Shown here: piece by piece, positions 15,686 through 50,260 of the stretch | Layout: every line of letters begins with the position of its first letter | Position numbering within the stretch: the first letter of the stretch is position 1 | Source of the DNA: Eledone cirrhosa | Lineage: Eukaryota | Direction: 5' to 3' | DNA: 64,000 bases | Assembly: GCA_964016885.1 (NCBI GenBank) | Contig: OZ024740.1 | Location: forward strand, 386,384,001 to 386,448,000 | Translations under genes and position numbers: made by a program | Notes under the pieces: generated by a model | What the model was told of the DNA's origin: nothing | Database searches by the model: none | Seen by the model: only the letters and a program-made list of their open reading frames with translations

Positions 15686-16013
15686 TGTTTTGAAGAATGA
15701 AAATAAAACAAAAGGCGAAGATTGGTGCTTTATTAGTTCATTGTTTTAAGATCGTTTCAGAATGTTGATTGTTCATGATAAATCGATACATTGACTAATC
15801 GATAGTGGTTATGTCATCACATATTACTAGTCTTGATATTCTAGATCCATCTCACCGTCTTCCTCAGAAACAATGAATGTGGTGACATAACCACTATGAA
15901 TAAGTCAATATATTGATTTACCATCATCAATCAACCTTTTGAAACGATCGTAAAACAATGAACTGATTAAGCTCCAATGTTTGCTTTTTGTTTCATTTTC
16001 ATTGTTCAAAACA
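15686..16013. repeat. Foldback element: about 140-bp imperfect inverted arms with about 50-bp spacer
   Basis: TGTTTTGAAGAATGAAAAT...ATAGTGGTTATGTCATCACAT pairs with ATGTGGTGACATAACCACTAT...ATTTTCATTGTTCAAAACA. Confidence 0.85.
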
Positions 16014-16487: not shown

Positions 16488-19400
16488 CAGGGGTTGGCAA
16501 CCTTTTGAAGTGTGTGGGCCACATAGCTATGGAGTGTCTCGTCAGTGGGCCACATTGCTATGGAGTGTCTTCTCAGTGGGCCACATAGCTATGGAGTGTC
16601 TTGTCAGTGGGCCACATTGCTATGGAGTGTCTTGTCAGTGGGCCACATTGCTATGGAGTGTCTTGTCAGTGGGCCACATTGCTACGGAGTGTCTCGTCAG
16701 TGGGCCACATTGCTATGGAGTGTCTTGTCAGTGGGCCACATTGCTATGGAGTGTCTTGTCAGTGGGCCACATTGCTATGGAGTGCCTCGTCAGTGGGCCA
16801 CATAGCTTTGGAGTGTCTTGTCAGTGGGCCACATTGCTAAGGAGTGTCTTGTCAGTGGGCCACATTGCTATGGAGTGTCTCGTCAGTGGGCCACATAGCA
16901 ATGGAGTGTCTTGTCAGTGGGCCACATTGCTATGGAGTGTCTTGTCAGTGGGCCACATTGCTATGTAGTGTCTTGTCAGTGGGCCACATTGCTATGGAGT
17001 GTCTTGTCAGTGGGCCACATAGCTATGGAGTGTCTTGTCAGTGGGCCACATAGCTATGGAGTGTCTTGTCAGTGGGCCACGTAGCTATGGAGTGTCTCGT
17101 CAGTGAGCCACATTGCTATGGAGTGTCTTGTCAGTGGGCCACATTGCTATGGAGTGTCTTGTCAGTGGGCCACATTGCTATGGAGTGTCTTGTCAGTGGG
17201 CCACATTGCTATGGAGTGTCTTGTCAGTGGGCCACATTGCCGTGGAGTGTCTTGTCAGTGGGCCACATTGCTGTGGAGTGTCTTGTCAGTGGGCCACATA
17301 GCTATGGAGTGTCTTGTCAGTGGGCCACATTGCTATGGAGTGTCTCGTCAGTGGGCCACATTGCTATGGAGTGTCTTGTCAGTGGGCCACATTGCTATGT
17401 AGTGTCTTGTCAGTGGGCCACATTGCTATGGAGTGTCTTGTCAGTGGGCCACATTGCTATGGAGTGTCTTGTCAGTGGGCCACATTGCTATGGAGTGTCT
17501 CGTCAGTGGGCCACATAGCAATGGAGTGTCTTGTCAGTGGGCCACATTGCTATGGAGTGTCTTGTCAGTGGGCCACATTGCTATGTAGTGTCTTGTCAGT
17601 GGGCCACATTGCTATGGAGTGTCTTGTCAGTGGGCCACATAGCTATGGAGTGTCTTGTCAGTGGGCCACATTGCTATGGAGTGTCTTGTCAGTGGGCCAC
17701 ATAGCAATGGAGTGTCTCGTTAGTGGGCCACATAGCAATGGAGTGTCTTGTCAGTGGGCCACATTGCTATGGAGTGTCTCGTCAGTGGGCCACATTGCTG
17801 TGGAGTGTCTTGTCAGTGGGCCACATTGCTATGGAGTGTCTTGTCAGTGGGCCACATAGCTATGGAGTGTCTTGTCAGTGGGCCACATTGCTATGGAGTG
17901 TCTTGTCAGTGGGCCACATTGCTATGGAGTGTCTTGTCAGTGGGCCACATTGCTATGGAGTGTCTTGTCAGTGGGCCACATTGCTATGGAGTGTCTCGTC
18001 AGTGGGCCACATAGCAATGGAGTGTCTTGTCAGTGGGCCACATTGCTATGGAGTGTCTTGTCAGTGGGCCACATTGCTATGTAGTGTCTTGTCAGTGGGC
18101 CACATTGCTATGGAGTGTCTTGTCAGTGGGCCACATAGCTATGGAGTGTCTTGTCAGTGGGCCACATTGCTATGGAGTGTCTTGTCAGTGGGCCACATAG
18201 CAATGGAGTGTCTCGTTAGTGGGCCACATAGCAATGGAGTGTCTTGTCAGTGGGCCACATTGCTATGGAGTGTCTCGTCAGTGGGCCACATTGCTGTGGA
18301 GTGTCTTGTCAGTGGGCCACATTGCTATGGAGTGTCTTGTCAGTGGGCCACATAGCTATGGAGTGTCTTGTCAGTGGGCCACATTGCTATGGAGTGTCTT
18401 GTCAGTGGGCCACATTGCTATGGAGTGTCTTGTCAGTGGGCCACATTGCTGTGGAGTGTCTTGTCAGTGGGCCACATTGCTATGGAGTGTCTTGTCAGTG
18501 GGCCACATTGCTGTGGAGTGTCTTGTCAGTGGGCCACATTGCTATGGAGTGTCTTGTCAGTGGGCCACATTGCTATGGAGTGTCTTGTCAGTGGGCCACA
18601 TTGCTGTGGAGTGTCTTGTCAGTGGGACACATTGCTATGGAGTGTCTTGTCAGTGGGCCACATTGCTGTGGAGTGTCTTGTCAGTGGGCCACATTGCTAT
18701 GGAGTGTCTTGTCAGTGGGCCACATTGCTGTGGAGTGTCTTGTCATTGGGCCACATTGCTGTGGAGTGTCTTGTCAGTGGTCCACATTGCTATGGAGTGT
18801 CTTGTCAGTGGGCTACATAGCTATGGAGTGTCTTGTCAGTGGGCCACATTGCCATGGAGTGTCTTGTCAGTGGGTCACATTGCTATGGAGTGTCTTGTCA
18901 GTCGGCCACATTGCTATGGAGTGTCTTGTCAGTGGGTCACATTGCTATGGAGTGTCTTGTCAGTGGGCCACATAGCAATGGAGCGTCTTGTCAGTGGGCC
19001 ACATAGCAATGGAGTGTCTTGTCATTGGGCCACATAGCTATGGAGTGTCTTGTCAGTGGGCCACATTGCTATGGAGTGTCTTGTCAGTGGGCCACATTGC
19101 TGTGGAGTGTCTTGTCAGTGGGCCACATTGCTATGGAGTGTCTTGTCAGTGGGCCACATAGCAATGGAGTGTCTTGTCAGTGGGCCACATTGCTATGGAG
19201 TGTCTTGTCAGTGGGCCACATAGCAATGGAGCGTCTTGTCAGTGGGCCACATTGCTATGGAGTGTCTTGTCAGTGGGCCACATTGGTATGGAGTGTCTTG
19301 TCAGTGGGCCACATTGCTATGGAGTGTCTTGTCAGTGGGCCACATTGCTATGCAGTGTCTTGTCAGTGGGCGACATAGCTATGGAGTGTCTTGTCAGTGG

Positions 19401-22400
19401 TCCACATAGCTATGGAGTGTCTTGTCAGTGGGCCACATTGCTATGGAGTGTCTTGTCAGTGGGCCACATTGCTGTGGAGTGTCTTGTCAGTGGGCCACAT
19501 TGCTTATGGAGTGTCTTGTCAGTGGGCCACATAGCTATGGAGTGTCTTGTCAGTGGGCCACATTGCTATGGAGTGTCTTGTCAGTGGGCCACATTGCTAT
19601 GGAGTGTCTTGTCAGTGGGCCACATTGCTATGTAGTTTCTTGTCAGTGGTCCACATAGCAATGGAGTGTCTTGTCAGTGGGCCACATAGCAATGGAGCGT
19701 CTTGTCATTGGGCCACATAGCTATGGAGTGTCTTGTCAGTGGGCCACATTGGTATGGAGTGTCTCGTCAGTGGGCCACATAGCTGTGGAGTGTCTTGTCA
19801 GTGGGCCACATTGCTATGGAGTGTCTTGTCAGTGGGCCACATTGGTATGGAGTGTCTTGTCAGTGGGTCACATTGCTATGGAGTGTCTTGTCAGTGGGCC
19901 ACATTGCTATGCAGTGTCTTGTCAGTGGGCGACATAGCTATGGAGTGTCTTGTCAGTGGGCCACATAGCTATGGAGTGTCTCGTCAGTGGGCCACATTGC
20001 TATGGAGTGTCTTGTCAGCGGGCCACATTGCTATGGAGTGTCTTGTCAGTGGGCCACATTGCTATGGAGTGTCTCGTTAGTGGGCCACATAGCAATGGAG
20101 TGTCTTGTCAGTGGGCCACATTGCTATGGAGTGTCTCGTCAGTGGGCCACATTGCTGTGGAGTGTCTTGTCAGTGGGCCACATTGCTATGTAGTGTCTTG
20201 TCAGTGGGCCACATTGCTATGGAGTGTCTTGTCAGTGGGCCACATAGCTATGGAGTGTCTTGTCAGTGGGCCACATTGCTATGGAGTGTCTTGTCAGTGG
20301 GCCACATTGCTATGGAGTGTCTTGTCAGTGGGCCACATTGCTATGGAGTGTCTTGTCAGTGGGCCACATTGCTGTGGAGTGTCTTGTCAGTGGGCCACAT
20401 TGCTATGGAGTGTCTTGTCAGTGGGCCACATTGCTGTGGAGTGTCTTGTCAGTGGGCCACATTGCTATGGAGTGTCTTGTCAGTGGGCCACATTGCTATG
20501 GAGTGTCTTGTCAGTGGGCCACATTGCTGTGGAGTGTCTTGTCAGTGAGCCACATTGCTATGGAGTGTCTTGTCAGTGGGCCACATTGCTGTGGAGTGTC
20601 TTGTCAGTGGGCCACAGTGCTATGGAGTGTCTTGTCAGTGGGCCACATTGCTATGGAGTGTCTTGTCAGTGGGCCACATTGCTGTGGAGTGTCTTGTCAG
20701 TGGGCCACATTGCTATGGAGTGTCTTGTCAGTGGGCTACATAGCTATGGAGTGTCTTCTCAGTGGGCCACATTGCCATGGAGTGTCTTGTCAGTGGGTCA
20801 CATTGCTATGGAGTGTCTTGTCAGTGGGCCACATTGCTATGGAGTGTCTTGTCAGTGGGTCACATTGCTATGGAGTGTCTTGTCAGTGGGCCACATAGCT
20901 ATGGAGTGTCTTGTCAGTGGGCCACATTGCTGTGGAGTGTCTTGTCAGTGGGCCACATTGCTATGGAGTGTCTTGTCAGTGGGCTACATAGCTATGGAGT
21001 GTCTTCTCAGTGGGCCACATTGCCATGGAGTGTCTTGTCAGTGGGTCACATTGCTATGGAGTGTCTTGTCAGTGGGCCACATTGCTATGGAGTGTCTTGT
21101 CAGTGGGTCACATTGCTATGGAGTGTCTTGTCAGTGGGCCACATAGCAATGGAGCGTCTTGTCAGTGGGCCACATAGCAATGGAGTGTCTTGTCATTGGG
21201 CCACATAGCTATGGAGTGTCTTGTCAGAGGGCCACGTTGCTATGGAGTGTCTTGTCAGTGGGCCACATTGCTGTGGAGTGTCTTGTCAGTGGGCCACATT
21301 GCTGTGGAGTGTCTTGTCAGTGGGCCACATTGGTATGGAGTGTCTTGTCAGTGGGCCACATTGCTATGGAGTGTCTTGTCAGTGGGCCACATAGCAATGG
21401 AGTGTCTTGTCAGTGGGCCACATTGCTATGTAGTTTCTTGTCAGTGGGCCACATAGCAATGGAGCGTCTTGTCAGTGGGCCACATTGCTATGGAGTGTCT
21501 TGTCAGTGGGCCACATTGGTATGGAGTGTCTTGTCAGTGGGCCACATTGCTATGGAGTGTCTTGTCATTGGGCCACATTGCTATGCAGTGTCTTGTCAGT
21601 GGGCGACATAGCTATGGAGTGTCTTGTCAGTGGTCCACATAGCTATGGAGTGTCTTGTCAGTGGGTCACATTGCTATGGAGTGTCTCGTCAGTGGGCCAC
21701 ATTGCTGTGGAGTGTCTTGTCAGGGGGCCACATAGCTATGGAGTGTCTTGTCAGTGGGCCACATTGCTGTGGAGTGTCTTGTCAGTGGGCCACATTGCTT
21801 ATGGAGTGTCTTGTCAGTGGGCCACATAGCTATGGAGTGTCTTGTCAGTGGGCCACATTGCTATTGAGTGTCTTGTCAGTGGGCCACATTGCTATGGAGT
21901 GTCTTGTCAGTGGGCCACATTGCTATGGAGTGTCTTGTCAGTGGGCCACATTGCTATGTAGTTTCTTGTCAGTGGTCCACATAGCAATGGAGTGTCTTGT
22001 CAGTGGGCCACATAGCAATGGAGCGTCTTGTCAGTGGGCCACATAGCTATGGAGTGTCTTGTCAGTGGGCCACATTGGTATGGAGTGTCTCGTCAGTGGG
22101 CCACATTGCTATGGAGTGTCTTGTCAGTGGGCCATATTGCTATGGAGTGTCTTGTCAGTGGGCCACATTGCTATGGAGTGTCTTGTCAGTGGGCCACATA
22201 GCTATGGAGTGTCTTGTCAGTGGGCCACATAGCTATGGAGTGTCTTGTCAGTGGGCCACATTGCTATGGAGTGTCTTGTCAGTGGGCCACATTGCTATGG
22301 AGTGTCTTGTCAGTGGGCCACATTGCTATGGAGTGTCGTGTCAGTGGGCCACATTGCTATGGAGTGTCTTGTCAGTGGGCCACATTGCTATGAAGTGTCT

Positions 22401-25400
22401 CGTCAGTGGGCCACATTGCTATGGAGTGTCTTGTCAGTGGGCCACATAGCTATGGAGTGTCTTGTCAGTGGGCCACATTGCTATGGAGTGTCTCATCAGT
22501 GGGCCACATTGCTATGGAGTGTCTTGTCAGTGGGCCACATAGCTATGGAGTGTCTTGTCAGTGGGCCACATAGCTATGGAGTGTCTTGTCAGTGGGCCAC
22601 ATTGCTATGGAGTGTCTTGTCAGTGGGCCACATTGCTATGGAGTGTCTTGTCAGTGGGCCACATTGCTATGGAGTGTCTTGTTAGTGGGCCACATTGCTA
22701 TGGAGTGTCTTGTCAGTGGGCCACATTGCTATGGAGTGTCTTGTCAGTGGGCCACATTGCTATGGAGTGTCTTGTCAGTGGGCCACATTGCTATGGAGTG
22801 TCTTGTCAGTGGGCCACATAGCTATGGAGTGTCTTGTCAGTGGGCCACATTGCTATGGAGTGTCTTGTCAGTGGGCCACATAGCTATGGAGTGTCATGTC
22901 AGTGGGCCACATTGCTATGCAGTGTCTTGTCAGTGGGCCACATTGATATGGAGTGTCTTGTCAGTGGGCCACATAGCTATGGAGTGTCTCGTCAGTGGGC
23001 CACATTGCTATGGAGTGTCTTGTCAGTGGGCCACATAGCAATGGAGCGTCTTGTCAGTGGGCCACATAGCAATGGAGTGTCTTGTCAGTGGGCCACATAG
23101 CTATGGAGTGTCTTGTCAGTGGGCCACATTGCTATGGAGTGTCTTGTCAGTGGGCCACATTGCTATGGAGTGTCTTGTCAGTGGGCCACGTAGCTATGCA
23201 GTGTCTTGTCAGTGGGTCACATTGCTATGGAGTGTCTTGTCAGTGGGCCACATTGCTATGGAGTGTCTTGTCAGTGGGCCACATTGCTGTGGAGTGTCTT
23301 GAGAGTGGGCCACATAGCTATGGAGTGTCTTGTCAGTGGGCCACATTGCTATGGAGTGTCTTGTCAGTGGGTCACATTGCTATGGAGTGTCTTGTCAGTG
23401 GGCCACATTGCTATGGAGTGTCTTGTCAGTGGGCCACATTGCTATGGAGTGTCTTGTCAGTGGGCCACATTGCTGTGGAGTGTCTTGTCTTTGGGCCACA
23501 TTGCTATGGAGTGTCTTGTCAGTGGGCCACATTGCTATGGAGTGTCTTGTCAGTGGGCCACATTGCTATGGAGTGTCATGTCAGTGGGCCACATTGCTAT
23601 GGAGTGTCTTGTCAGTGGGCCACATTGCTATGGAGTGTCTTGTCAGTGGGCCACATTGCTATGGAGTGTCTTGTCAGTGGGCCACATTGCCGTGGAGTGT
23701 CTTGTCAGTGGGCCACATTGCTGTGGAGTGTCTTGTCAGTGGGCCACATAGCTATGGAGTGTCTTGTCAGTGGGCCACATTGCTATGGAGTGTCTCGTCA
23801 GTGGGCCACATTGCTATGGAGTGTCTCGTCAGTGGGCCACATTGCTATGGAGTGTCTTTTCAGTGGGCCACATAGCTATGGAGTGTCTTGTCAGTGGGCC
23901 ACATTGCTATGGAGTGTCTTGTCAGTGGGCCACATTGCTGTGGAGTGTCTTGTCAGTGGGCCACATTGCTATGGAGTGTCTTGTCAGTGGGCCACATTGC
24001 TGTGGAGTGTCTTGTCAGTGGGCCACATTGCTATGGAGTGTCTTGTCAGTGGGCCACATAGCAATGGAGTGTCTTGTCAGTGGGCCACATAGCTATGGAG
24101 TGTCTTGTCAGTGGGCCACATTGCTATGGAGTGTCTTGTCAGTGGGCCACATTGCTGTGGAGTGTCTTGTCAGTGGGCCACATTGCTATGGAGTGTCTTG
24201 TCAGTGGGCCACATTGCTATGGAGTGTCTTGTCAGTGGGCCACATTGCTATGGAGTGTCTTGTCAGTGGGCCACATTGCTATGGAGTGTCTTGTCAGTGG
24301 GCCACATTGCTGTGGAGTGTCTTGTCAGTGGGCCACATTGCTGTGGAGTGTCTTGTCAGTGGGCCACATTGCTATGGAGTGTCTTGTCAGTGGGCCACAT
24401 TGCTGTGGAGTGTCTTGTCAGTGGGCCACATTGCTATGGAGTGTCTTGTCAGTGGGCTACATAGCTATGGAGTGTCTTGTCAGTGGGCCACATTGCTATG
24501 GAGTGTCTTGTCAGTGGGTCACATTGCTATGGAGTGTCTTGTCAGTGGGCCACATTCTTATGGAGTGTCTTGTCAGTGGGTCACATTGCTATGGAGTGTC
24601 TTGTCAGTGGGTCACATTGCTATGGAGTGTCTAGTCAGTGGGCCACATTGCTATGGAGTGTCTTGTCAGTGGGCCACATTGCTACGGAGTGTCTTGTCAG
24701 TGGGCCACATTGCTATGGAGTGTCTTGTCAGTGGGCCACATTGCTGTGGAGTGTCCTGTCAGTGGGCCACATAGCTATGGAGTGTCTTGTCAGTGGGCCA
24801 CATGGCTGTGGAGTGTCTTGTCAGTGGGCCACATAGCTATGGAGTGTCTTGTCAGTGGGCCACATTGCTGTGGAGTGTCTTGTCAGTGGGCCACATTGCT
24901 ATGGAGTGTCTTGTCAGTGGGCCACATTGCTATGGAGTGTCTTGTCAGTGGGCCACATAGCAATGGAGCGTCTTGTCAGTGGGCCACATAGCAATGGAGT
25001 GTCTTGTCATTGGGCCACATAGCTATGGAGTGTCTTGTCAGTGGGCCACATTGCTATGGAGTGTCTTGTCAGTGGGCCACATTGCTGTGGAGTGTCTTGT
25101 CAGTGGGCCACATTGCTATGGAGTGTCTTGTCAGTGGGCCACATAGCAATGGAGTGTCTTGTCAGTGGGCCACATTGCTATATAGTTTCTTGTCAGTGGG
25201 CCACATAGCAATGGAGCGTCTTGTCAGTGGGCCACATTGCTATGGAGTGTCTTGTCAGTGGGCCACATTGGTATGGAGTGTCTTGTCAGTGGGCCACATT
25301 GCTATGGAGTGTCTTGTCAGTGGGCCACATTGCTATGTAGTGTCTTGTCAGTGGGCGACATAGCTATGGAGTGTCTTGTCAGTGGTCCACATAGCTATGG

Positions 25401-28400
25401 AGTGTCTTGTCAGTGGGCCACATTGCTATGGAGTGTCTCGTCAGTGTGCCACATTGCTGTGGAGTGTCTTGTCAGTGGGCCACATAGCTATGGAGTGTCT
25501 TGTCAGTGGGCCACATTGCTGTGGAGTGTCTTGTCAGTGGGCCACATTGCTTATGGAGTGTCTTGTCAGTGGGCCACATAGCTATAGAGTGTCTTGTCAG
25601 TGGGCCACATTGCTATGGAGTGTCTTGTCAGTGGGCCACATTGCTATGGAGTGTCTTGTCAGTGGGCCACATTGCTATGTAGTTTCTTGTCAGTGGTCCA
25701 CATAGCAATGGAGTGTCTTGTCAGTGGGCCACATAGCAATGGAGCGTCTTGTCAGTGGGCCACATTGCTATGGAGTGTCTTGTCAGTGGGCCACATTGGT
25801 ATGGAGTGTCTCGTCAGTGGGCCACATTGCTGTGGAGTGCCTTGTCAGTGGGCCACATTGCTATGGAGTGTCTTGTCAGTGGGCCACATTGGTATGGAGT
25901 GTCTTGTCAGTGGGCCACATAGCTATAGAGTGTCTTGTCAGTGGGCCACATTGCTATGGAGTGTCTTGTCAGTGGGCCACATTGGTATGGAGTGTCTTGT
26001 CAGTGGGCCACATATCTATAGAGTGTCTCGTCAGTGGGCCACATTGCTGTGGAGTGTCTTGTCAGTGGGCCACATTGCTATGGAGTGTCTTGTCAGTGGG
26101 CCACATTGGTATGGAGTGTCTTGTCAGTGGGCCACATTGCTATGGAGTGTCTTGTCAGTGGGCCACATTGCTATGGAGTGTCTCGTCAGTGGGCCACATT
26201 GCTATGGAGTGTCTTGTCAGTGGGCCACATTGCTATGGAGTGTCTTGTCAGTGGGCCACATAGCTATGGAGTGTCTTGTCAGTGGGCCACATAGCTATGG
26301 AGTGTCTTGTCAGTGGGCCACATTGCTATGGAGTGTCTTGTCAGTGGGCCACATTGCTATGGAGTGTCTTGTCAGTGGGCCACATTGCTATGTAGTGTCT
26401 TGTCGGTGGGCCACATTGCTATGGAGTGTCTTGTCAGTGGGCCACATTGCTATGGAGTGTCTCGTCAGTGGGCCACATTGCTATGGAGTGTCTTGTCAGT
26501 GGGCCACATAGCTATGGAGTGTCTTGTCAGTGGGCCACATTGCTATGGAGTGTCTCGTCAGTGGGCCACATTGCTATGGAGTGTCTTGTCAGTGGGCCAC
26601 ATAGCTATGGAGTGTCTTGTCAGTGGGCCACATAGCTATGGAGTGTCTTGTCAGTGGGCCACATTGCTATGGAGTGTCTTGTCAGTGGGCCACATTGCTA
26701 TGGAGTGTCTTGTCAGTGGGCCACATTGCTATGGAGTGTCTTGTCAGTGGGCCACATAGCTATGGAGTGTCTTGTCAGTGGGCCACATTGCTATGGAGTG
26801 TCTTGTCAGTGGGCCACATAGCTATGGAGTGTCTTGTCAGTGGGCCACATTGCTATGGAGTGTCTTGTCAGTGGGCCACATTGATATGGAGTGTCTTGTC
26901 AGTGGGCCACATAGCTATGGAGTGTCTCGTCAGTGGGCCACATTGCTATGGAGTGTCTTGTCAGTGGGCCACATAGCAATGGAGCGTCTTGTCAGTGGGC
27001 CACATAGCAATGGAGTGTCTTGTCAGTGGGCCACATAGCTATGGAGTGTCTTGTCAGTGGGCCACATTGCTATGGAGTGTCTTGTCAGTGGGCCACATTG
27101 CTATGGAGTGTCTTGTCAGTGGGCCACGTAGCTATGGAGTGTCTTGTCAGTGGGTCACATTGCTATGGAGTGTCTTGTCAGTGGGCCACATTGCTATGGA
27201 GTGTCTTGTCAGTGGGCCACATTGCTATGGAGTGACTTGTCAGTGGGCCACATTGCTGTGGAGTGTCTTGTCAGTGGGCCACATAGCTATGGAGTGTCTT
27301 GTCAGTGGGCCACATTGCTATGGAGTGTCTTGTCAGTGGGTCACATTGCTATGGAGTGTCTTGTCAGTGGGCCACATTGCTATGGAGTGTCTTGTCAGTG
27401 GGCCACATTGCTATGGAGTGTCTTGTCAGTGGGCCACATTGCTATGGAGTGTCTTGTCAGTGGGTCACATTGCTGTGGAGTGTCTTGTCAGTGGGCCACA
27501 TTGCTATGGAGTGTCTTGTCAGTGGGCCACATAAATATGGAGTGTCTTGTCAGTGGGCCACATAGCTACGGAGTGTCTTGTCAGTGGGCCACATAGCTAT
27601 GGAGTGTCTTGTCAGTGGGCCACATTGCTATGGAGTTTCTTGTCAGTGGGCCACATAGCTATGGAGTGTCTTGTCAGTGGGCCACATTGCTATGGAGTGT
27701 CTCGTCAGTGGGCCACATTGCTATGGAGTGTCTTGTCAGTGGGCCACATAGCTATGGAGTGTCTTGTCAGTGGGCCACATAGCTATGGAGTGTCTTGTCA
27801 GTGGGCCACATAGCTATGGAGTGTCTTGTCAGTGGGCCACATAGCTATGGAGTGTCTTGTCAGTGGGCCACATAGCTATGGAGTGTCTTGTCAGTGGGCC
27901 ACATTGCTGTGGAGTGTCTTGTCAGTGGGCCACATTGCTATGGAGTGTCTTGTCAGTGGGCTACATAGCTATGGAGTGTCTTCTCAGTGGGCCACATTGC
28001 CATGGAGTGTCTTGTCAGTGGGTCACATTGCTATGGAGTGTCTTGTCAGTGGGCCACATTGCTATGGAGTGTCTTGTCAGTGGGTCACATTGCTATGGAG
28101 TGTCTTGTCAGTGGGCCACATAGCAATGGAGCGTCTTGTCAGTGGGCCACATAGCAATGGAGTGTCTTGTCATTGGGCCACATAGCTATGGAGTGTCTTG
28201 TCAGAGGGCCACGTTGCTATGGAGTGTCTTGTCAGTGGGCCACATTGCTGTGGAGTGTCTTGTCAGTGGGCCACATTGCTGTGGAGTGTCTTGTCAGTGG
28301 GCCACATTGGTATGGAGTGTCTTGTCAGTGGGCCACATTGCTATGGAGTGTCTTGTCAGTGGGCCACATAGCAATGGAGTGTCTTGTCAGTGGGCCACAT

Positions 28401-37400: not shown

Positions 37401-40400
37401 TTGCTATGGAGTGTCTTGTCAGTGGGCCACATAGCTATGGAGTGTCTTGTCAGTGGGCCACATTGCTATGGAGTGTCTTGTCAGTGGGCCACATTGCTAT
37501 GGAGTGTCTTGTCAGTGGGCCACATAGCTATGGAGTATCTTGTCAGTGGGCCACATAGCAATGGAGCGTCTTGTCAGTGGGCCACATAGCAATGGAGTGT
37601 CTTGTCATTGGGCCACATAGCTATGGAGTGTCTTGTCAGTGGGCCACATTGCTATGGAGTGTCTTGTCAGTGGGCCACATTGCTGTGGAGTGTCTTGTCA
37701 GTGGGCCACATTGCTATGGAGTATCTTGTCATTGGGCCACATAGCAATGGAGTGTCTTGTCAGTGGGCCACATTGCTATGTAGTTTCTTGTCAGTGGGCC
37801 ACATAGCAATGGAGCGTCTTGTCAGTGGGCCACATTGCTATGGAGTGTCTTGTCAGTGGGCCACATTGGTATGGAGTGTCTTGTCAGTGGGCCACATTGC
37901 TATGGAGTGTCTTGTCAGTGGGCCACATTGCTATGCAGTGTCTTGTCAGTGGGCGACATAGCTATGGAGTGTCTTGTCAGTGGTCCACATAGCTATGGCG
38001 TGTCTTGTCAGTGGGCCACATTGCTATGGAATGTCTCGTCAGTGGGCCACATTGCTGTGGAGTGTCTTGTCAGTGGGCCACATAGCTATGGAGTGTCTTG
38101 TCAGTGGGCCACATTTCTGTGGAGTGTCTTGTCAGTGGGCCACATTGCTATGGAGTGTCTTGTCAGTGGGCCACATTGCTATGGAGTGTCTTGTCAGTGG
38201 GCCACATTGCTATGGAGTGTCTTGTCAGTGGGTCACATTGCTGTGGAGTGTCTTGTCAGTGGGCCACATAGCTATGGAGTGTCTTGTCAGTGGGCCACAT
38301 TGCTATGGAGTGTCTTGTCAGTGGGTCACATTGCTATGGAGTGTCTTGTCAGTGGGCCACATTGCTATGCAGTGTCTTGTCAGTGGGCGACATAGCTATG
38401 GAGTGTCTTGTCAGTGGTCCACATAGCTATGGAGTGTCTTGTCAGTGGGCCACATTACTATGGAATGTCTCGTCAGTGGGCCACATTGCTATGTAGTTTC
38501 TTGTCAGTGGTCCACATAGCAATGATAGCTATGGAGTGTCTTGTCAGTGGGCCACATTGCTATGGAATGTCTCGTCAGTGGGCCACATTGCTGTGGAGTG
38601 TCTTGTCAGTGGGCCACATAGCTATGGAGTGTCTTGTCAGTGGGCCAGATTGCTGTGGAGTGTCTTGTCAGTGGGCCACATTGCTATGGAGTGTCTTGTC
38701 AGTGGGCCACATAGCTATGGAGTGTCTTGTCAGTGGGCCACATTGCTATGGAGTGTCTTGTCAGTGGGCCACATTGCTATGGAGTGTCTTGTCAGTGGGC
38801 CACATTACTATGTAGTTTCTTGTCAGTGGTCCACATAGCAATGGAGTGTCTTGTCAGTGGGCCACATAGCAATGGAGTGTCTTGTCAGTGGGCCACATAG
38901 CAATGGAGCGTCTTGTCAGTGGGCCACATAGCTATGGAGTGTCTTGTCAGTTTGGCCACATTGGTGTGGAGTGTCTTGTCAGTGGGCCACATTGCTATGG
39001 AGTGTCTTGTCAGTGGGCCACATTGCTATGCAGTGTCTTGTCAGTGGGCGACATAGCTATGGAGTGTCTTGTCAGTGGGCCACATAGCTATGGAGTGTCT
39101 CGTCAGTGGGCCACATTGCTATGGAGTGTCTTGTCAGTGGGCCACATTGCTATGGAGTGTCTTGTCAGTGGGCCACATTGCTATGGAGTGTCTCGTCAGT
39201 GGGCCACATTGCTATGGAGTGTCTTGTCAGTGGGCCACATAGCAATGGAGCGTCTTGTCAGTGGGCCACATAGCTATGGAGTGTCTTGTCAGTGGGCCAC
39301 ATTGCTATGGAGTGTCTCGTCAGTGGGCCACATTGCTATGGAGTGTCTTGTCAGTGGGCCACATAGCTATGGAGTGTCTTGTCAGTGGGCCACATAGCTA
39401 TGGAGTGTCTTGTCAGTGGGCCACATTGCTATGGAGTGTCTTGTCAGTGGGCCACATTGCTATGGAGTGTCTTGTCAGTGGCCACATTGCTATGGAGTGT
39501 CTTGTCAGTGGGCCACATTGCTATGGAGTGTCTTGTCAGTGGGCCACATTGCTATGGAGTGTCTTGTCAGTGGGCCACATTGCTATGGAGTGTCTTGTCA
39601 GTGGGCCACATTGCTATGGAGTGTCTTGTCAGTGGGCCACATTGCTATGGAGTGTCTTGTCAGTGGGCCACATAGCTATGGAGTGTCTTGTCAGTGGGCC
39701 ACATTGCTATGGAGTGTCTTGTCAGTGGGCCACATAGCTATGGAGTGTCTTGTCAGTGGGCCACATTGCTATGGAGTGTCTTGTCAGTGGGCCACATTGA
39801 TATGGAGTTTCTTGTCAATGGGCCACATAGCTATGGAGTATCTCGTCAGTGGGCCACATTGCTATGGAGTGTCTTGTCAGTGGGCCACATTGCTATGGAG
39901 TGTCTTGTCAGTGGGCCACATTGCTATGCAGTGTCTTGTCAGTGGGCGACATAGCTATGGAGTGTCTTGTCAGTGGTCCACATAGCTATGGCGTGTCTTG
40001 TCAGTGGGCCACATTGCTATGGAATGTCTCGTCAGTGGGCCACATTGCTGTGGAGTGTCTTGTCAGTGGGCCACATAGCTATGGAGTGTCTTGTCAGTGG
40101 GCCACATTGCTGTGGAGTGTCTTGTCAGTGGGCCACATTGCTATGGAGTGTCTTGTCAGTGGGCCACATAGCTATGGAGTGTCTTGTCAGTGGGCCACAT
40201 TGCTATGGAGTGTCTTGTCAGTGGGCCACATTGCTATGGAGTGTCTTGTCAGTGGGCCACATTGCTATGTAGTTTCTTGTCAGTGGTCCACATAGCAATG
40301 GAGTGTCTTGTCAGTGGGCCACGTTGGTATGGAGTGTCTCGTCAGTGGACCACATTGCTGTGGAGTGTCTTGTCAGTGGGCCACATTGCTATGGAGTGTC

Positions 40401-43400
40401 TTGTCAGTGGGCCACATTGGTATGGAGTGTCTTGTCAGTTTGGCCACATTGGTATGGAGTGTCTTGTCAGTGGGCCACATTGCTATGGAGTGTCTTGTCA
40501 GTGGGCCACATTGCTATGGAGTGTCTTGTCAGTGGGCCACATTGCTATGGAGTGTCTTGTCAGTGGGTCACATTGCTGTGGAGTGTCTTGTCAGTGGGCC
40601 ACATAGCTATGGAGTGTCTTGTCAGTGGGCCACATTGCTATGGAGTGTCTTGTCAGTGGGTCACATTGCTATGGAGTGTCTTGTCAGTGGGCCACATTGC
40701 TATGCAGTGTCTTGTCAGTGGGCGACATAGCTATGGAGTGTCTTGTCAGTGGTCCACATAGCTATGGAGTGTCTTGTCAGTGGGCCACATTGCTATGGAA
40801 TGTCTCGTCAGTGGGCCACATTGCTATGTAGTTTCTTGTCAGTGGTCCACATAGCAATGATAGCTATGGAGTGTCTTGTCAGTGGGCCACATTGCTATGG
40901 AATGTCTCGTCAGTGGGCCACATTGCTGTGGAGTGTCTTGTCAGTGGGCCACATAGCTATGGAGTGTCTTGTCAGTGGGCCACATTGCTATGGAGTGTCT
41001 TGTCAGTGGGCCACATTGCTATGCAGTGTCTTGTCAGTGGGCGACATAGCTATGGAGTGTCTTGTCAGTGGTCCACATAGCTATGGCGTGTCTTGTCAGT
41101 GGGCCACATTGCTATGGAATGTCTCGTCAGTGGGCCACATTGCTGTGGAGTGTCTTGTCAGTGGGCCACATAGCTATGGAGTGTCTTGTCAGTGGGCCAC
41201 ATTGCTATGGAGTGTCTTGTCAGTGGGCCACATAGCTATGGAGTGTCTTGTCAGTGGGCCACATTGCTATGGAGTGTCTTGTCAGTGGGCCACATAGCTA
41301 TGGAGTGTCTTGTCAGTGGGCCACATTGCTATGGAGTGTCTTGTCAGTGGGCCACATTGCTATGGAGTGTCTTGTCAGTGGGCCACATTGCTATGCAGTG
41401 TCTTGTCAGTGGGCGACATAGCTATGGAGTGTCTTGTCAGTGGTCCACATAGCTATGGCGTGTCTTGTCAGTGGGCCACATTGCTATGGAATGTCTCGTC
41501 AGTGGGCCACATTGCTGTGGAGTGTCTTGTCAGTGGGCCACATAGCTATGGAGTGTCTTGTCAGTGGGCCACATTGCTGTGGAGTGTCTTGTCAGTGGGC
41601 CACATTGCTATGGAGTGTCTTGTCAGTGGGCCACATAGCTATGGAGTGTCTTGTCAGTGGGCCACATTGCTATGGAGTGTCTTGTCAGTGGGCCACATTG
41701 CTATGGAGTGTCTTGTCAGTGGGCCACATAGCTATGGAGTATCTTGTCAGTGGGCCACATAGCAATGGAGCGTCTTGTCAGTGGGCCACATAGCAATGGA
41801 GTGTCTTGTCATTGGGCCACATAGCTATGGAGTGTCTTGTCAGTGGGCCACATTGCTATGGAGTGTCTTGTCAGTGGGCCACATTGCTGTGGAGTGTCTT
41901 GTCAGTGGGCCACATTGCTATGGAGTATCTTGTCATTGGGCCACATAGCAATGGAGTGTCTTGTCAGTGGGCCACATTGCTATGTAGTTTCTTGTCAGTG
42001 GGCCACATAGCAATGGAGCGTCTTGTCAGTGGGCCACATTGCTATGGAGTGTCTTGTCAGTGGGCCACATTGGTATGGAGTGTCTTGTCAGTGGGCCACA
42101 TTGCTATGGAGTGTCTTGTCAGTGGGCCACATTGCTATGCAGTGTCTTGTCAGTGGGCGACATAGCTATGGAGTGTCTTGTCAGTGGTCCACATAGCTAT
42201 GGCGTGTCTTGTCAGTGGGCCACATTGCTATGGAATGTCTCGTCAGTGGGCCACATTGCTGTGGAGTGTCTTGTCAGTGGGCCACATAGCTATGGAGTGT
42301 CTTGTCAGTGGGCCACATTTCTGTGGAGTGTCTTGTCAGTGGGCCACATTGCTATGGAGTGTCTTGTCAGTGGGCCACATTGCTATGGAGTGTCTTGTCA
42401 GTGGGCCACATTGCTATGGAGTGTCTTGTCAGTGGGTCACATTGCTGTGGAGTGTCTTGTCAGTGGGCCACATAGCTATGGAGTGTCTTGTCAGTGGGCC
42501 ACATTGCTATGGAGTGTCTTGTCAGTGGGTCACATTGATATGGAGTGTCTTGTCAGTGGGCCACATTGCTATGCAGTGTCTTGTCAGTGGGCGACATAGC
42601 TATGGAGTGTCTTGTCAGTGGTCCACATAGCTATGGAGTGTCTTGTCAGTGGGCCACATTGCTATGGAATGTCTCGTCAGTGGGCCACATTGCTATGTAG
42701 TTTCTTGTCAGTGGTCCACATAGCAATGATAGCTATGGAGTGTCTTGTCAGTGGGCCACATTGCTATGGAATGTCTCGTCAGTGGGCCACATTGCTGTGG
42801 AGTGTCTTGTCAGTGGGCCACATAGCTATGGAGTGTCTTGTCAGTGGGCCAGATTGCTGTGGAGTGTCTTGTCAGTGGGCCACATTGCTATGGAGTGTCT
42901 TGTCAGTGGGCCACATAGCTATGGAGTGTCTTGTCAGTGGGCCACATTGCTATGGAGTGTCTTGTCAGTGGGCCACATTGCTATGGAGTGTCTTGTCAGT
43001 GGGCCACATTGCTATGTAGTTTCTTGTCAGTGGTCCACATAGCAATGGAGTGTCTTGTCAGTGGGCCACATAGCAATGGAGTGTCTTGTCAGTGGGCCAC
43101 ATAGCAATGGAGCGTCTTGTCAGTGGGCCACATAGCTATGGAGTGTCTTGTCAGTTTGGCCACATTGGTGTGGAGTGTCTTGTCAGTGGGCCACATTGCT
43201 ATGGAGTGTCTTGTCAGTGGGCCACATTGCTATGCAGTGTCTTGTCAGTGGGCGACATAGCTATGGAGTGTCTTGTCAGTGGGCCACATAGCTATGGAGT
43301 GTCTCGTCAGTGGGCCACATTGCTATGGAGTGTCTTGTCAGTGGGCCACATTGCTATGGAGTGTCTTGTCAGTGGGCCACATTGCTATGGAGTGTCTTGT

Positions 43401-46400
43401 CAGTGGGCCACATAGCAATGGAGCGTCTTGTCAGTGGGCCACATAGCTATGGAGTGTCTTGTCAGTGGGCCACATTGCTATGGAGTGTCTCGTCAGTGGG
43501 CCACATTGCTATGGAGTGTCTTGTCAGTGGGCCACATAGCTATGGAGTGTCTTGTCAGTGGGCCACATAGCTATGGAGTGTCTTGTCAGTGGGCCACATT
43601 GCTATGGAGTGTCTTGTCAGTGGGCCACATTGCTATGGAGTGTCTTGTCAGTGGCCACATTGCTATGGAGTGTCTTGTCAGTGGGCCACATTGCTATGGA
43701 GTGTCTTGTCAGTGGGCCACATTGCTATGGAGTGTCTTGTCAGTGGGCCACATTGCTATGGAGTGTCTTGTCAGTGGGCCACATTGCTATGGAGTGTCTT
43801 GTCAGTGGGCCACATTGCTATGGAGTGTCTTGTCAGTGGGCCACATAGCTATGGAGTGTCTTGTCAGTGGGCCACATTGTTATGGAGTGTCTTGTCAGTG
43901 GGCCACATAGCTATGGAGTGTCTTGTCAGTGGGCCACATTGCTATGGAGTGTCTTGTCAGTGGGCCACATTGATATGGAGTGTCTTGTCAATGGGCCACA
44001 TAGCTATGGAGTATCTCGTCAGTGGGCCACATTGCTATGGAGTGTCTTGTCAGTGGGCCACATTGCTATGGAGTGTCTTGTCAGTGGGCCACATTGCTAT
44101 GCAGTGTCTTGTCAGTGGGCGACATAGCTATGGAGTGTCTTGTCAGTGGTCCACATAGCTATGGCGTGTCTTGTCAGTGGGCCACATTGCTATGGAATGT
44201 CTCGTCAGTGGGCCACATTGCTGTGGAGTGTCTTGTCAGTGGGCCACATAGCTATGGAGTGTCTTGTCAGTGGGCCACATTGCTGTGGAGTGTCTTGTCA
44301 GTGGGCCACATTGCTATGGAGTGTCTTGTCAGTGGGCCACATAGCTATGGAGTGTCTTGTCAGTGGGCCACATTGCTATGGAGTGTCTTGTCAGTGGGCC
44401 ACATTGCTATGGAGTGTCTTGTCAGTGGGCCACATTGCTATGTAGTTTCTTGTCAGTGGTCCACATAGCAATGGAGTGTCTTGTCAGTGGGCCACGTTGG
44501 TATGGAGTGTCTCGTCAGTGGACCACATTGCTGTGGAGTGTCTTGTCAGTGGGCCACATTGCTATGGAGTGTCTTGTCAGTGGGCCACATTGGTATGGAG
44601 TGTCTTGTCAGTTTGGCCACATTGGTATGGAGTGTCTTGTCAGTGGGCCACATTGCTATGGAGTGTCTTGTCAGTGGGCCACATTGCTATGGAGTGTCTT
44701 GTCAGTGGGCCACATTGCTATGGAGTGTCTTGTCAGTGGGTCACATTGCTGTGGAGTGTCTTGTCAGTGGGCCACATAGCTATGGAGTGTCTTGTCAGTG
44801 GGCCACATTGCTATGGAGTGTCTTGTCAGTGGGTCACATTGCTATGGAGTGTCTTGTCAGTGGGCCACATTGCTATGCAGTGTCTTGTCAGTGGGCGACA
44901 TAGCTATGGAGTGTCTTGTCAGTGGTCCACATAGCTATGGAGTGTCTTGTCAGTGGGCCACATTGCTATGGAATGTCTCGTCAGTGGGCCACATTGCTAT
45001 GTAGTTTCTTGTCAGTGGTCCACATAGCAATGATAGCTATGGAGTGTCTTGTCAGTGGGCCACATTGCTATGGAATGTCTCGTCAGTGGGCCACATTGCT
45101 GTGGAGTGTCTTGTCAGTGGGCCACATAGCTATGGAGTGTCTTGTCAGTGGGCCACATTGCTGTGGAGTGTCTTGTCAGTGGGCCACATTGCTATGGAGT
45201 GTCTTGTCAGTGGGCCACATAGCTATGGAGTGTCTTGTCAGTGGGCCACATTGCTATGGAGTGTCTTGTCAGTGGGCCACATTGCTATGGAGTGTCTTGT
45301 CAGTGGGCCACATTGCTATGTAGTTTCTTGTCAGTGGTCCACATAGCAATGGAGTGTCTTGTCAGTGGGCCACATAGCAATGGAGTGTCTTGTCAGTGGG
45401 CCACATAGCAATGGAGCGTCTTGTCAGTGGGCCACATAGCTATGGAGTGTCTTGTCAGTTTGGCCACATTGGTATGGAGTGTCTTGTCAGTGGACCACAT
45501 TGCTATGGAGTGTCTCGTCAGTGGGCCACATTGCTATGGAGTGTCTTGTCAGTGGGCCACATAGCAATGGAGCGTCTTGTCAGTGGGCCACATAGCTATG
45601 GAGTGTCTTTTCAGTGGGCCACATTGCTATGGAGTGTCTCGTCAGTGGGCCACATTGCTATGGAGTGTCTTGTCAGTGGGCCACATAGCTATGGAGTGTC
45701 TTGTCAGTGGGCCACATAGCTATGGAGTGTCTTGTCAGTGGGCCACATTGCTATGGAGTGTCTTGTCAGTGGGCCACATTGCTATGGAGTGTCTTGTCAG
45801 TGGCCACATTGCTATGGAGTGTCTTGTCAGTGGGCCACATTGCTATGGAGTGTCTTGTCAGTGGGCCACATTGCTATGGAGTGTCTTGTCAGTGGGCCAC
45901 ATTGCTATGGAGTGTCTTGTCAGTGGGCCACATTGCTATGGAGTGTCTTGTCAGTGGGCCACATTGCTATGGAGTGTCTTGTCAGTGGGCCACATAGCTA
46001 TGGAGTGTCTTGTCAGTGGGCCACATTGCTATGGAGTGTCTTGTCAGTGGGCCACATAGCTATGGAGTGTCTTGTCAGTGGGCCACATTGCTATGGAGTG
46101 TCTTGTCAGTGGGCCACATTGATATGGAGTGTCTTGTCAGTGGGCCACATAGCTATGGTGTATCTCGTCAGTGGGCCACATTGCTATGGAGTGTCTTGTC
46201 AGTGGGCCACATTGCTATGGAGTGTCTTGTCAGTGGGCCACATTGCTATGGAGTGTCTTGTCAGTGGGCCACATAGCAATGGAGCATCTTGTCAGTGGGC
46301 GACATAGCAATGGAGTGTCATGTCAGTGGGCCACATAGCTATGGAGTGTCTTGTCAGTGGGCCACATTGCTATGGAGTGTCTTGTCAGTGGGCCACATTG

Positions 46401-48324
46401 CTATGGAGTGTCTTGTCAGTGGGCCACATAGCTGTAGAGTGTCTTGTCAGTGGGTCACATTGCTATGGAGTGTCTTGTCAGTGGGCCACATTGCTATGGA
46501 GTGTCTTGTCAGTGGGCCACATTGCTATGGAGTGTCTTGTCAGTGGGCCACCTTGCTGTGGAGTGTCTTGTCAGTGGGCCACATAGCTATGGAGTGTCTT
46601 GTCAGTGGGCCACATTGCTATGGAGTGTCTTGTCAGTGGGTCACATTGGTATGGAGTGTCTTGTCAGTGGGCCACATTGCTATGGAGTGTCTTGTCAGTG
46701 GGTCACATTGCTATGGAGTGTCTTGTCAGTGGGCCACATTGCTATGGAGTGTCTTGTCAGTGGACCACATTGCTGTGGAGTGTCTTGTCTTTGGGCCACA
46801 TTGCTATGGAGTGTCTTCTCAGTGGGCCACATTACTATGGAGTGTCTTGTCAGTGGGCCACATAGCAATGGAGTGTCTTGTCAGTGTGCCACATAGCTAT
46901 GGAGTGTCTTGTCTGTGGGTCACATTGCTATGGAGTGTCTTGTCAGTGGGCCACATTGCTATGGAGTGTCTTGTCAGTGGGCCACATTGCTATGGAGTGT
47001 CTTGTCAGTGGGCCACATTGCTATGGAGTGTCTTGTCAGTGGGTCACATTGCTGTGGAGTGTCTTGTCAGTGGGCCACATAGCTATGGAGTGTCTTGTCA
47101 GTGGGCCACATTGCTATGAAGTGTCTTGTCAGTGGGTCACATAAATATGGAGTGTCTTGTCAGTGGGCCACATTGCTATGGAGTGTCTTGTCAGTGGGTC
47201 ACATTGCTATGGAGTGTCTTGTCAGTGGGCCACATTTCTATGGAGTGTCTTGTCAGTGGGCCACATTGCTATGGAGTGTCTTGTCAGTGGGCCACATAGC
47301 TATGTAGTGTTTTATCAGTGGGCCACATTGCTATGGAGTGTCTTGTCAGTGGGCCACATTGCTATGGAGTGTCATGTCAGTGGGCCACATTGCTGTGGAG
47401 TGTCTTGTCAGTGGGCCACATACCTATGGAGTGTCTTGTCAGTGGGCCACATTGCTATGGAGTGTCTTGTCAGTGGGCCACATTGCTATGGAGTGTCTTG
47501 TTTAGAGGGCCACATAGCAATGTAGTTTCTTGTCAGTGCGCCACATTGCTATGCAGTGTCTTGTTTAGAGGGCCACATAGCAATGTAGTGTCTTGTCAGT
47601 GGGCCACATTGGTATGGAGTGTCTTGTCAGTGGGCCACATTGCTATGCAGTGTCTTGTTTAGAGGGCCACATAGCAATGTAGTGTCTTGTCAGTGGGCCA
47701 TGATATCAAATAAGTAATAAGAACATATGTAAAAACAAATACAGTAATATGATAAAATACTATGACATTTTTAATAAACTGTGACAAAACTACAATACCT
47801 GGCAGTGTATTTAGATCAGGGTTGCCATTTGTTTCATAATTTACTTCTAATAATGCTGAACACTTTTAATATAGAAAAATAAATAAATATTGATTATTAT
47901 TGAATACAGACACTCACAGATGTTTTACTACCAGACAGCAAATTCAAATAAAACATTTTGAGGATGAAATGAAATAACTGTTTGCCAGACACACTGACTT
48001 GTTTTAGGTAAGTCTGGGTTATTCCACATCCCTGCCATACACATACTATGATGTACGTATATACATGGATAAACACACAGATAGTCTCCTTGACTTCGAT
48101 GTCTGATTATTCTATCTGTCTGAGTTTCATTGTTTGTAACTGTGACACAAAATATTACATTCAGCTAAGTGGGTCATGCGTTCTCTAGTCGGTATTCTAA
48201 TCCAAAATAATTCAGATCATTTTTTCAGGGATCGCTTAGCCTAAGATTGAAACCTGTTGGCAGGCCGGACAAAAATCCTTCATGGGCCACATCCAGCCCG
48301 TAGGCCAGGTGTTGTCGACCCCTC
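16488..48324. mobile_element. Non-autonomous hAT (Charlie/Buster-type) transposon, 31,837 bp, enclosing the satellite
   Basis: Left TIR CAGGGGTTGGCAAC (16488-16501); right TIR GTTGTCGACCCCTC (48311-48324; 11/14 to the reverse complement). 8-bp TSD TACTAGAA (16480-16487) / TACTTGAA (48325-48332). Subterminal GGCCGGAC..TGGGCCACATCCAGCCCGTAGGCC. No transposase. Confidence 0.88.
16514..47700. repeat. 31-bp tandem satellite, about 1,000 copies, consensus GGAGTGTCTTGTCAGTGGGCCACATTGCTAT
   Basis: Direct reading: head-to-tail, single orientation, mostly 0-2 substitutions per unit, no spacers, no TE insertions seen. 31,187 bp / 31 is about 1,006. Confidence 0.99.
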
Positions 48325-48865
48325 TACTTGAAGATCATGTTTATGGTTAGTAGATCCTTGACAATACATTGTATTTGTAATTTTAGTATTTTTTTAAAGA
48401 CCAACTTCAAAATATTCGCTCTCTTAGACTGGTAGTTTTTACATTAGAACAAATAGTGCCATAAAGTTTCTGAATAGTCTCCACAAGAACAGAAGTGATT
48501 CTATTTGACCTGTTCTTGATAAAATATAGTTTATGGATATATGGCTGATTCAAAGCCAACATAGCCCTTGTTTATTAACCTTATTCAGTGCCTGATACAT
48601 TTTAGATATTGACAAATCTAGCTGAGATAACAGCGGATTGGAATTTGATAGCTTATCTCTAGATTCCTTCCCTAAATTTTGCCACCCTTAACTAATTATA
48701 TTTTTGTTTAATAATTTGATTTGCTATAGATTTAGAATGTACTCTATATCTATTATTTTCCTTTGTACTCCCTCTTTTGCTAAGTTATCTGCTTTCCTGT
48801 ATCCCTTAATATCTATAATATATGGCCAGGTATCCAATAATCGTTACTTGTTTATTATTTTCTGA

Positions 48866-49000
48866 GTTACGTTCCTTTACAGTCTGAGTTCAAATCCCGC
48901 CGAGGTTAACTTTGCCTTTCATCCTTACGGGGTCGATAAAATAAAGTACCAGTAATGTACTGGGTAATTGCTGGCCTTGTGCCTAAAGTAGAAACAATTA
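48866..49000 (+). mobile_element. 5'-truncated Deu/Nin-like SINE
   Basis: Family core present; TSD ATTATTTTCTGA at 48854-48865 and 48997-49008. Confidence 0.9.
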
Positions 49001-49106
49001 TTTTCTGATAGATAGTTATCTATCTTTAGCAGGAGATTCCTAATATCTCTAACCAGACCTCTTTCTCTTGATTGAAATGGTTCTAGGTTTGATAAACTAT
49101 TTAGTT

Positions 49107-49530: not shown

Positions 49531-49720
49531 GGTGGTGGATTGGCAGTATCAGTAGAGAGTCGGACACCATGCTTTGCAGCATAGAGTTATGGCCTTTTAC
49601 GGTCTGAGTTCAAATCTCGCCGAGGTTAACTTTGCCTTTCATCCTTACGGGGTCGATAAAATAAAGTACCAGTAATGTACTGGGTTATTGCTGGCCTTGT
49701 GCCAAAAGTAGAAACAATTA
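49531..49720 (+). mobile_element. Full-length tRNA-derived SINE with Deu/Nin-like domain
   Basis: A box TGGCAGTATCAG, B box GAGTTCAAATC, core GCCTTTCATCCTTACGGGGTCGATAAA; 16-bp TSD TTATTATTCTGAAAAG (49515-49530, 49718-49733). Confidence 0.9.
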
Positions 49721-50097
49721 TTATTCTGAAAAGACCAAATAGCTCCTCATGTTACTTCAATGTCTGAATATTACTCATCTGTATAACTAACTTATTTTTT
49801 TAAAGAAGTTTGATTGTATAATGTTGTTATGACATTCTTTTGCTTCCTCTCTAAAAGAATTTTAATTATTCTGTCAATGGATAGAACATTAAAATCATGC
49901 TGTTTTCTCTTCTGTTGAATCTAAGCAATTAGAAATTTATACTTCTATCAACAAATGAAATATACCTATTTTGGGAGATCTTAGACAATTCAATATAGTT
50001 TTCCTTATTTAAGTGCAACATGTTTTGATAGCTTGAAGATAACTAATGTTCATATCTCCCAATATAAAAATTGATTGTTGATAACTCCCTTATTATA

Positions 50098-50260
50098 TAA
50101 TTGTTTCTACATTTGGCACAAGGCCAGCAATTATCCCAGTGCATTACTGCTGCTTTATTTTATCGACCCCGTAAGGATGAAAGACAAAGTTAACCTCGGT
50201 GGGATTTGAACTCAGATCGTAAAAGGCAGTAACTCTATGTTGTAAAGCATAGAGTTACTT
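50098..50260 (-). mobile_element. Deu/Nin-like SINE, 5'-truncated with a snap-back end
   Basis: Reverse complement of the family; TSD TTATTATATAAT (about 50090 and 50261). Confidence 0.85.

Follow-up and report, generated by a model that had tools for sequence, protein, structure and literature searches.

Within a 64,000-nucleotide stretch of Eledone cirrhosa DNA (contig OZ024740.1, positions 386,384,001 to 386,448,000 of the forward strand; hereafter the window), tandem copies of a 31-bp unit form a satellite array inside a single transposable element. Judged by its target site duplication (TSD), terminal inverted repeats (TIRs) and end architecture, this element is a decayed, non-autonomous hAT of the Charlie/Buster type. 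The best overall explanation of the satellite, and in our view a probable one, is that its unit is the interval between two motifs conserved at the 3' ends of the element's family. The period of three helical turns would then be a fossil of transposon-end geometry; relatives without arrays share this spacing, which therefore calls for no array function, and we found no evidence for one. Most likely the array is neutral satellite DNA of heterochromatin, carried by a dead element.

Tandem Repeats Finder (TRF) reports one array in the window, at 16514-47700, with a period of 31, 1004.3 copies and 93% matches. Splitting it gives 1,004 full monomers, which fall into 120 types and lie on average 3.4% from their consensus. 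An earlier reading of this DNA from its letters alone (the sequence-only reading) had counted about 1,000 sites for the ten-base motif TGGGCCACAT. That figure fits the monomers, 870 of which retain the core GGGCC; exact sites inside the array number 848. Across the window the 10-mer occurs 849 times on the + strand and never on the - strand, and 727 of the 848 intervals between successive sites measure exactly 31 bp. The one copy outside the array lies at 48283-48292, as the earlier reading had stated, and by composition only 0.0004 copies would be expected in the 624-bp AT-rich body. Its remark that the array begins and stops within one motif was equally well founded, as the 8-mer GTGGGCCA stands at both borders (start 16514, end 47693-47700). 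The lead-in to the core is GTGGGCC 844 times in the array and GCGGGCC once. HaeIII (GGCC) sites number 882.

The enclosing element spans 16488-48324 (31.8 kb through the array). Its TSD copies, TACTAGAA and TACTTGAA, have the 8-bp length of hAT duplications, match at 7/8 positions and agree at all four variable ones. They are centred on CTAG, and the TIRs, which open at 16488 and close at 48324, are of the CAGGGGT type that marks Charlie/Buster elements; the two pair at 11/16 bases. The terminal YARNG described in PMC3014272 (publications are cited here for those parts of their text that were available) is present at 16488, while the TIR that closes at 48324 begins with G. This base and the partial TIR pairing are read as decay. 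Reduced to one unit, the element has a computed length of 689 bp; its longest stop-free frame has 78 codons, tblastn finds no transposase piece in the element or elsewhere in the window, and five sister contigs in a public sequencing run (X1, below) differ from its body by 9-16%. [quoted passage not shown] The array runs head to tail, its unit is homologous to the element's terminus and element ends stand at both sides; by this structural test it belongs among the MITE-derived satellites.

The unit can be traced to the element through its relatives. Metagenome contigs were scanned with the TSD core and TIR, the motif being absent from the query, and at least 120 loci were found; these are drawn from few host data sets, which holds for all counts on relatives. 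The loci listed yield 127 ends, 117 of them with at least 100 bases inward, in 60 clusters at 70%. GGGCC occurs within nt 16-95 in 30/60 clusters, whereas the outer flank has it in 3/60 and shuffles predict 6.1, so that the sequence-only reading was right to call the motif the transposon's own: a GGGCC-type core recurs at fixed positions in the relatives' ends. The result by which that reading would have been refuted, a lack of subterminal conservation of GGGCCAC, is contradicted for the core and only weakly borne out for the literal heptamer (5/60 clusters, 0 in the outer flank). Among the 117 listed ends TGGGCCACAT occurs in none, GGGCCACAT in 6 and GGGCCRCA in 19. Because the core is frequent and the exact 10-mer absent, the conserved family motif is taken to be a short GGGCC-type core with context, and the window's 10-mer would be its T-rich form, as expected from CpG decay. 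A metagenome scan with the TIR plus GGGCCAC as query gave 0 matches. The sole match of a viral scan (L121) was dropped as a chance match within a phage capsid gene. Of two scans of genome contigs, one gave 0 matches and the other two, of which one (L123) was dropped as chance-like and the other, L122, is described below.

In 32 of the 33 TSD-bounded listed relatives (180-1,253 bp), a T-run follows the TIR at one end only, and at this end the first core lies at +28/29 in 25/33. Where a T-run end holds a further core (n=20), the spacing is 30-32 in 13 cases, 39 in 3, and 9, 16, 28 and 61 once each. Counted by T-run clusters (n=23), a core is found at +27-30 in 15, at +56-62 in 15 and at both places in 11 (two of the 11 being one family); the motif intervals, which correspond to the unit, measure 29-32 bp. 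Overall, the pair stands at +28/29 and +59/60 in relatives. The T-run end of the window element, with cores at +29 and +60, follows the same plan, which supports the earlier suggestion that two motifs 31 bp apart seeded the array. Since such a pair exists family-wide at the 3' end, duplication between its members is the natural origin for the unit. At the opposite end, the 37 non-T-run clusters show four core peaks, with which the window's cores at +19, +26, +37 and +59 coincide; the isolated copy of TGGGCCACAT at 48283-48292 is the +37 core of this end. In relatives, motif 2 most often has GC as its lead-in (17/29). TRF finds a tandem of the motif interval in 0/127 listed ends. One relative, the 551-bp element L042, holds a short 16/34-bp tandem in which the motif's 3' half is repeated in both orientations.

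Between families the spacer is 29% identical and the core 86%. Three core variants occur, which differ in the second base (GGGCC, GTGCC or GAGCC); of 16 clusters 13 are callable, and 11 of these carry matching variants at their two ends, with a permutation p=0.0005 that is optimistic because the clusters are related. Spacing conserved over unrelated spacers, fixed position and covariation from end to end form the pattern of a putative protein-contact site. From this pattern the core pair very probably represents transposase-contact sites, with a spacing constrained by the transpososome. Buster ends that measure 24-64 bp have almost no activity in AnBT (PMC12637253), which indicates that subterminal sequence matters in the Charlie/Buster group.

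Orientation rests on relatives with coding remnants. L122 is a 3,484-bp relative (3501-6984 of its contig) that unites the two end types and holds a decayed transposase; as its query included the first core, only its second motif and its other end are independent. It appears as a full-length, decayed Charlie/SPIN-type hAT next to a tandem array of 100-300-bp period, and its contig, filed in a bacterial metagenome-assembled genome, is probably animal contamination of that assembly. The transposase carries a Spin-doc zinc finger (E=1.4e-07), with zf-BED (E=0.028) and DUF4371 below the cut-off, and has FAM200/ZBED5 RNase-like neighbours at 0.97 in Atlas; a search of solved structures with the transposase piece gave nothing under E 0.1. 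Its frame is directed toward the T-run end, and L011, L074 and L059 agree, while in L013 and L026 the frame is directed away from the non-T-run end type. From these orientations, the window element is placed on the - strand, so that the array occupies its 3' subterminus. The sequence-only reading had named a right TIR beside 48283-48292; both TIRs stand, and this one, which closes at 48324, is the element's 5' end. Besides L122, five TIR-matched loci hold Buster/Charlie-type transposase pieces. These were found by tblastn; Pfam detects no hAT domain in the 100 longest of 211 stop-free frames from L001-L120.

We can outline a history for the array, whose first four steps we regard as highly probable. 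A non-autonomous Charlie/Buster-type hAT of ~690 bp inserted here long ago, as its TIRs, 8-bp TSD and multi-copy family show. Like its relatives, it bore a direct pair of GGGCC-type motifs in its 3' end, at +29 and +60. In the window copy both read GTGGGCCA, an 8-bp direct repeat, probably through CpG decay of motif 2. Duplication between these direct repeats, followed by unequal exchange, would then have produced ~1,000 units and 31 kb. Short flanking repeats have been described as an origin of minisatellites (PMC6947457). Expansion driven by hairpins was considered and rejected, as the folding of four units is not superior to that of shuffled sequences (z=-1.29, 22/200).

Later growth is recorded in exact repeats of 2,619, 2,332 and 1,365 bp, offset by 215, 225 and 135 units, which belong to two regions of higher-order duplication. 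Five 32-bp units mark the left-hand higher-order repeats, and a 40-bp variant unit, in five copies at 35863, 38507, 40842, 42711 and 45015, marks those on the right. Divergence gives an order of ages, from the body (9-16% from its sisters) through the monomers (3.4%) to the duplications (0.08% and 0.4%). As the duplications are much younger than the divergence of the body, unequal exchange would have acted in an already immobile copy, and the window copy carries many private changes relative to the family besides its altered terminal base.

Features of the satellite-bearing element and its array in the window
Feature	Positions	Strand	Remarks
TSD, left copy TACTAGAA	16480..16487	+	fits the NHCTAGRN / NTCTAGAN-type TSD of Charlie-related hATs (PMC3014272, Table 1)
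TIR of the 3' (T-run) end	16488..16503	-	3' polarity from transposase orientation in L122, L011, L074 and L059
Subterminal motif 1 and first array unit	16514..16524	+	core GGGCC at nt +29 from TIR start
Satellite array	16514..47692	+	1,004 full 31-bp monomers; unit corresponds to the interval from motif 1 to motif 2
Higher-order duplication	20867..34200	+	offsets ~215-225 monomers; 5 mismatches / 6,293 aligned bases
Higher-order duplication	36969..45345	+	offset ~135 monomers; 17 mismatches / 4,173 aligned bases; 40-bp variant units
Diverged edge monomers	47473..47692	+	63-bp dimer with 32-bp unit; some with C at unit position 19, as in dispersed copies
Subterminal motif 2, array end	47693..47700	+	GTGGGCCA; corresponds to the +60 motif of an unexpanded end
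AT-rich non-coding MITE body	47701..48259	-	multi-copy in organisms A and B
5'-end motif cluster	48260..48308	-	cores at +19, +26, +37, +59 from TIR, as found likewise in relatives
TIR of the 5' end	48309..48324	-	terminal base G; relatives C or T
TSD, right copy TACTTGAA	48325..48332	+	7/8 match to left copy

The element and its unit were also compared with public sequencing runs. Words of 47660-48330 are present in 4 of the 7 runs listed, none of these four being listed as an RNA run, and four of the seven were compared with 47660-48900 at 80% likeness. X1 and X2 are one sample of organism A, possibly the source of the window; X4 is organism B, and X5 is a restriction-site-associated DNA sequencing (RAD-seq) run, in which a low unit depth is uninformative on absence. 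The right TIR junction shows 0 differences in X1 and X2 at a depth of 8-9. The unit and the next bin have summed depths of 98,798 and 4,249 in X1 and of 105,771 and 4,625 in X2, so that in organism A the unit stands at ~23x the adjacent body (98,798 against 4,249); in X4 the figures are 800 and 681. Overlapping short contigs inflate such summed depths, which cannot serve as copy numbers, and an estimate of satellite copies drawn from them was rejected. Organism B has the MITE, and a satellite of the 31-bp unit is not seen there. At 47694, in motif 2, C is found in 120/122 reads (8 starts) of X5, at 6,286/51,137 of the depth in X1 and at 229/856 in X4. Tandem units in X1 and X2 carry words absent from the window array (neither TATACAG nor GCAGGC occurs in the window); at unit position 19, C accounts for 39,186/131,593 of the summed depth in X1 (30%), compared with 23/1,004 window monomers. 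Together, these differences indicate that organism A probably has further arrays or alleles.

A functional account of the array was offered as speculation by the sequence-only reading: its phased sites could be a landing pad or sink on which the transposase or domesticated BED-finger proteins settle, or transposase binding could drive its expansion. Here Spin-doc-finger proteins were considered as well, and binding that maintains the array. Such an account draws on the resemblance of the core to a protein-recognised site in relatives, on the family transposase with its zinc finger (Spin-doc, with zf-BED below the cut-off), on the retention of the core in 870/1,004 monomers and on the conservation of the 10-mer, which ranks 2 of 31 ten-base windows. 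GGGCC itself, however, ranks 20 of 31 five-base windows, and alleles per site are equal within the motif and outside it (21/10 and 44/21, 2.1 each), so that the core shows no sign of selection. The lead-in points the same way, as the array has GTGGGCC almost throughout even though GC is commonest before motif 2 in relatives. Phasing on one helix face also fails except at short range: at 10.2-10.6 bp/turn each unit adds 7-27 degrees of rotation, the opposite face is reached after 7-26 units, and 34% of periods from 10 to 200 fall within 0.15 turn of an integer. The left end of Hermes resembles the window element in its asymmetric ends and in motifs at fixed distances from the TIR (PMC10368747). 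The sequence-only reading had stated that hAT transposases bind subterminal repeats through their BED finger. In Hermes such left-end repeats are bound by BED domains, at an AAGT that lies in the first 35 bp; the repeated GC-rich motif (GTGGC) is not a BED site, and extra internal sites are largely dispensable (PMC10368747). Our literature search found no such binding data for Charlie-type GGGCC cores. Moreover, the window holds no transposase piece by tblastn, and the host copy is old (9-16% from its sisters) and immobile, with a broken terminal base, while the duplications are 0.1-0.4% diverged. We consider a sink, or expansion driven by binding, very unlikely. A broader form, in which the core is a Charlie/Buster zinc-finger site and a satellite family of 3'-end intervals is bound by a surviving or domesticated protein whose binding favours repeated expansion at several loci, has a somewhat better but still slim chance; if true, such arrays of hundreds of near-three-turn-spaced sites would titrate transposase or organise heterochromatin.

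Less improbable than these, though still unlikely, is a history of the kind proposed for Tetris (TIR-220, Drosophila virilis) and Galileo, in which a MITE subfamily gained a few extra motif units that raised binding and mobility, short arrays spread to several loci, and some grew long and immobilised their element. In those elements the tandem unit likewise comes from terminal sequence, unequal crossing-over is invoked, large arrays are thought to be immobilising, and the terminal repeats would, in the proposed model, first promote mobility and later hinder it; transposase-binding sites are included in the Galileo repeats and possibly in those of Tetris (PMC4079207). Unlike the window element, with one expanded end, a 31-bp unit, short TIRs and putative sites, they are of the foldback kind: repeats occupy both of their long TIRs, and the units measure 220 bp. 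The variant tandem units of X1 and X2, which point to other arrays or alleles in organism A, would suit this history. Set against it are the many private changes and changed terminal base of the window copy, the roughly one unit per body in organism B (by summed depth, not copy number) and the lack of motif-interval tandems in the listed relative ends. In Hermes, furthermore, motifs have to lie at an exact distance from the TIR (PMC10368747), so that extra distal units need not help mobility. For the late stage such a history is compatible with an origin by duplication between the two motifs. The least probable alternative is an artefact, with the length inflated by mis-assembly or the ends of different copies joined through the repeat. 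Multi-kb near-identical duplications are places where assemblers err, and the read comparison covered the right junction, the left lying outside it. Yet the TSD copies match at 7/8 positions, including all four variable ones, the duplications show 5 and 17 base differences as well as unit indels, and X1 and X2 show a strongly amplified unit and an unchanged right junction, although they may be the source sample and so non-independent.

Several observations weigh against the proposed origin between conserved motifs and against the neutrality of the array. The unexpanded copy is deduced from depth and from contigs diverging from the array, none having been seen letter for letter. Just inside the 3' end of L122 (3603-3952), a 39-bp tandem of nine copies lacks the GGGCC core, which implies that motif pairs are unnecessary for such subterminal arrays, and spacings of 39-40 are also present in relatives (3/20 T-run ends). 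The small number of host data sets behind the at least 120 loci, and the relatedness of their clusters, reduce the weight of the counts. The 10-mer window varies by 1.6% against a mean of 4.2% (rank 2/31, Mann-Whitney p=0.098), so that weak constraint is possible, and the conservation tests are low in power because higher-order copies make monomers non-independent. Finally, homogenisation resets divergence, and the first duplication may date to the element's active period.

Satellites born from MITEs are already known; the present one comes from a hAT element. In the miDNA4 satellite of a Tc1/mariner MITE of Xenopus tropicalis, the monomer or array likewise lies in the MITE, short direct repeats flank the unit, and long arrays arise as the ends decay (PMC12628747, PMC9659126); Xstir of Xenopus (same sources) and DTC84 (PMC3879986) are comparable. 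The window array differs from miDNA4 in its hAT/Charlie host, its ~1,000 copies and its readable TIRs and TSD, and in that the unit was not captured, being the element's own interval between conserved subterminal motifs. Charlie, SPIN and Buster MITEs (hAT-HT, Anolis; PMC3014272) have the same 8-bp CTAG-centred TSD and 14-16-bp TIRs starting CAGGGGT; unlike them, the window element extends over 31.8 kb through its non-coding array and has one TIR without the terminal pyrimidine. A hAT example is absent from the available text of three reviews of satellites derived from transposable elements (PMC12628747, PMC9659126 and PMC6947457, in which 'hAT' occurs 0 times, twice in the references only, and 0 times). 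Within a partial coverage of the literature, with Repbase and Dfam outside it, we found no published account of this satellite, its spacing or a Charlie/Buster motif code.

The flanks of the element are repeat-rich animal DNA with LINE pieces. A CpG-rich LINE-like element at 54088-58388 holds endonuclease, reverse transcriptase and zf-RVT pieces in several frames, and RTE-like LINE fragments lie at 5021-5626, 6774-7673, 11945-12237, 60474-60956 and 63123-63743, one frame having a PHD finger; an exact look-up of one window LINE frame found it absent. Two further hAT-like TIR starts, at 10694 and 49107, have no TSD-matched partner end within 1.5 kb. Inverted repeats at 15686-16013 (137-nt arms, 85%) and 51936-52051 (58-nt arms, 98%, no loop) are possibly other MITEs. 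A SINE-like, very high-copy interspersed repeat is present at 48864-49002, 49584-49722 and 50097-50255, with a depth of over a million in public runs.

If the array arose by duplication between its two terminal motifs, the survival of the seed repeats, both element ends and the TSD would make visible a step that is rarely seen in a MITE-born satellite, namely the one that fixes the unit. As a by-product, the relatives provide a candidate recognition code for Charlie/Buster ends, with cores at +29/+60 of one end and +19/+26/+37/+59 of the other and a core variant common to both. More generally, the unit length of this satellite would be the conserved spacing of a transposon end, so that end architecture can set satellite repeat length. 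We propose as a rule that Charlie-type MITEs would yield satellites of 29-32 bp from nt +26 to +29 of their 3' end.

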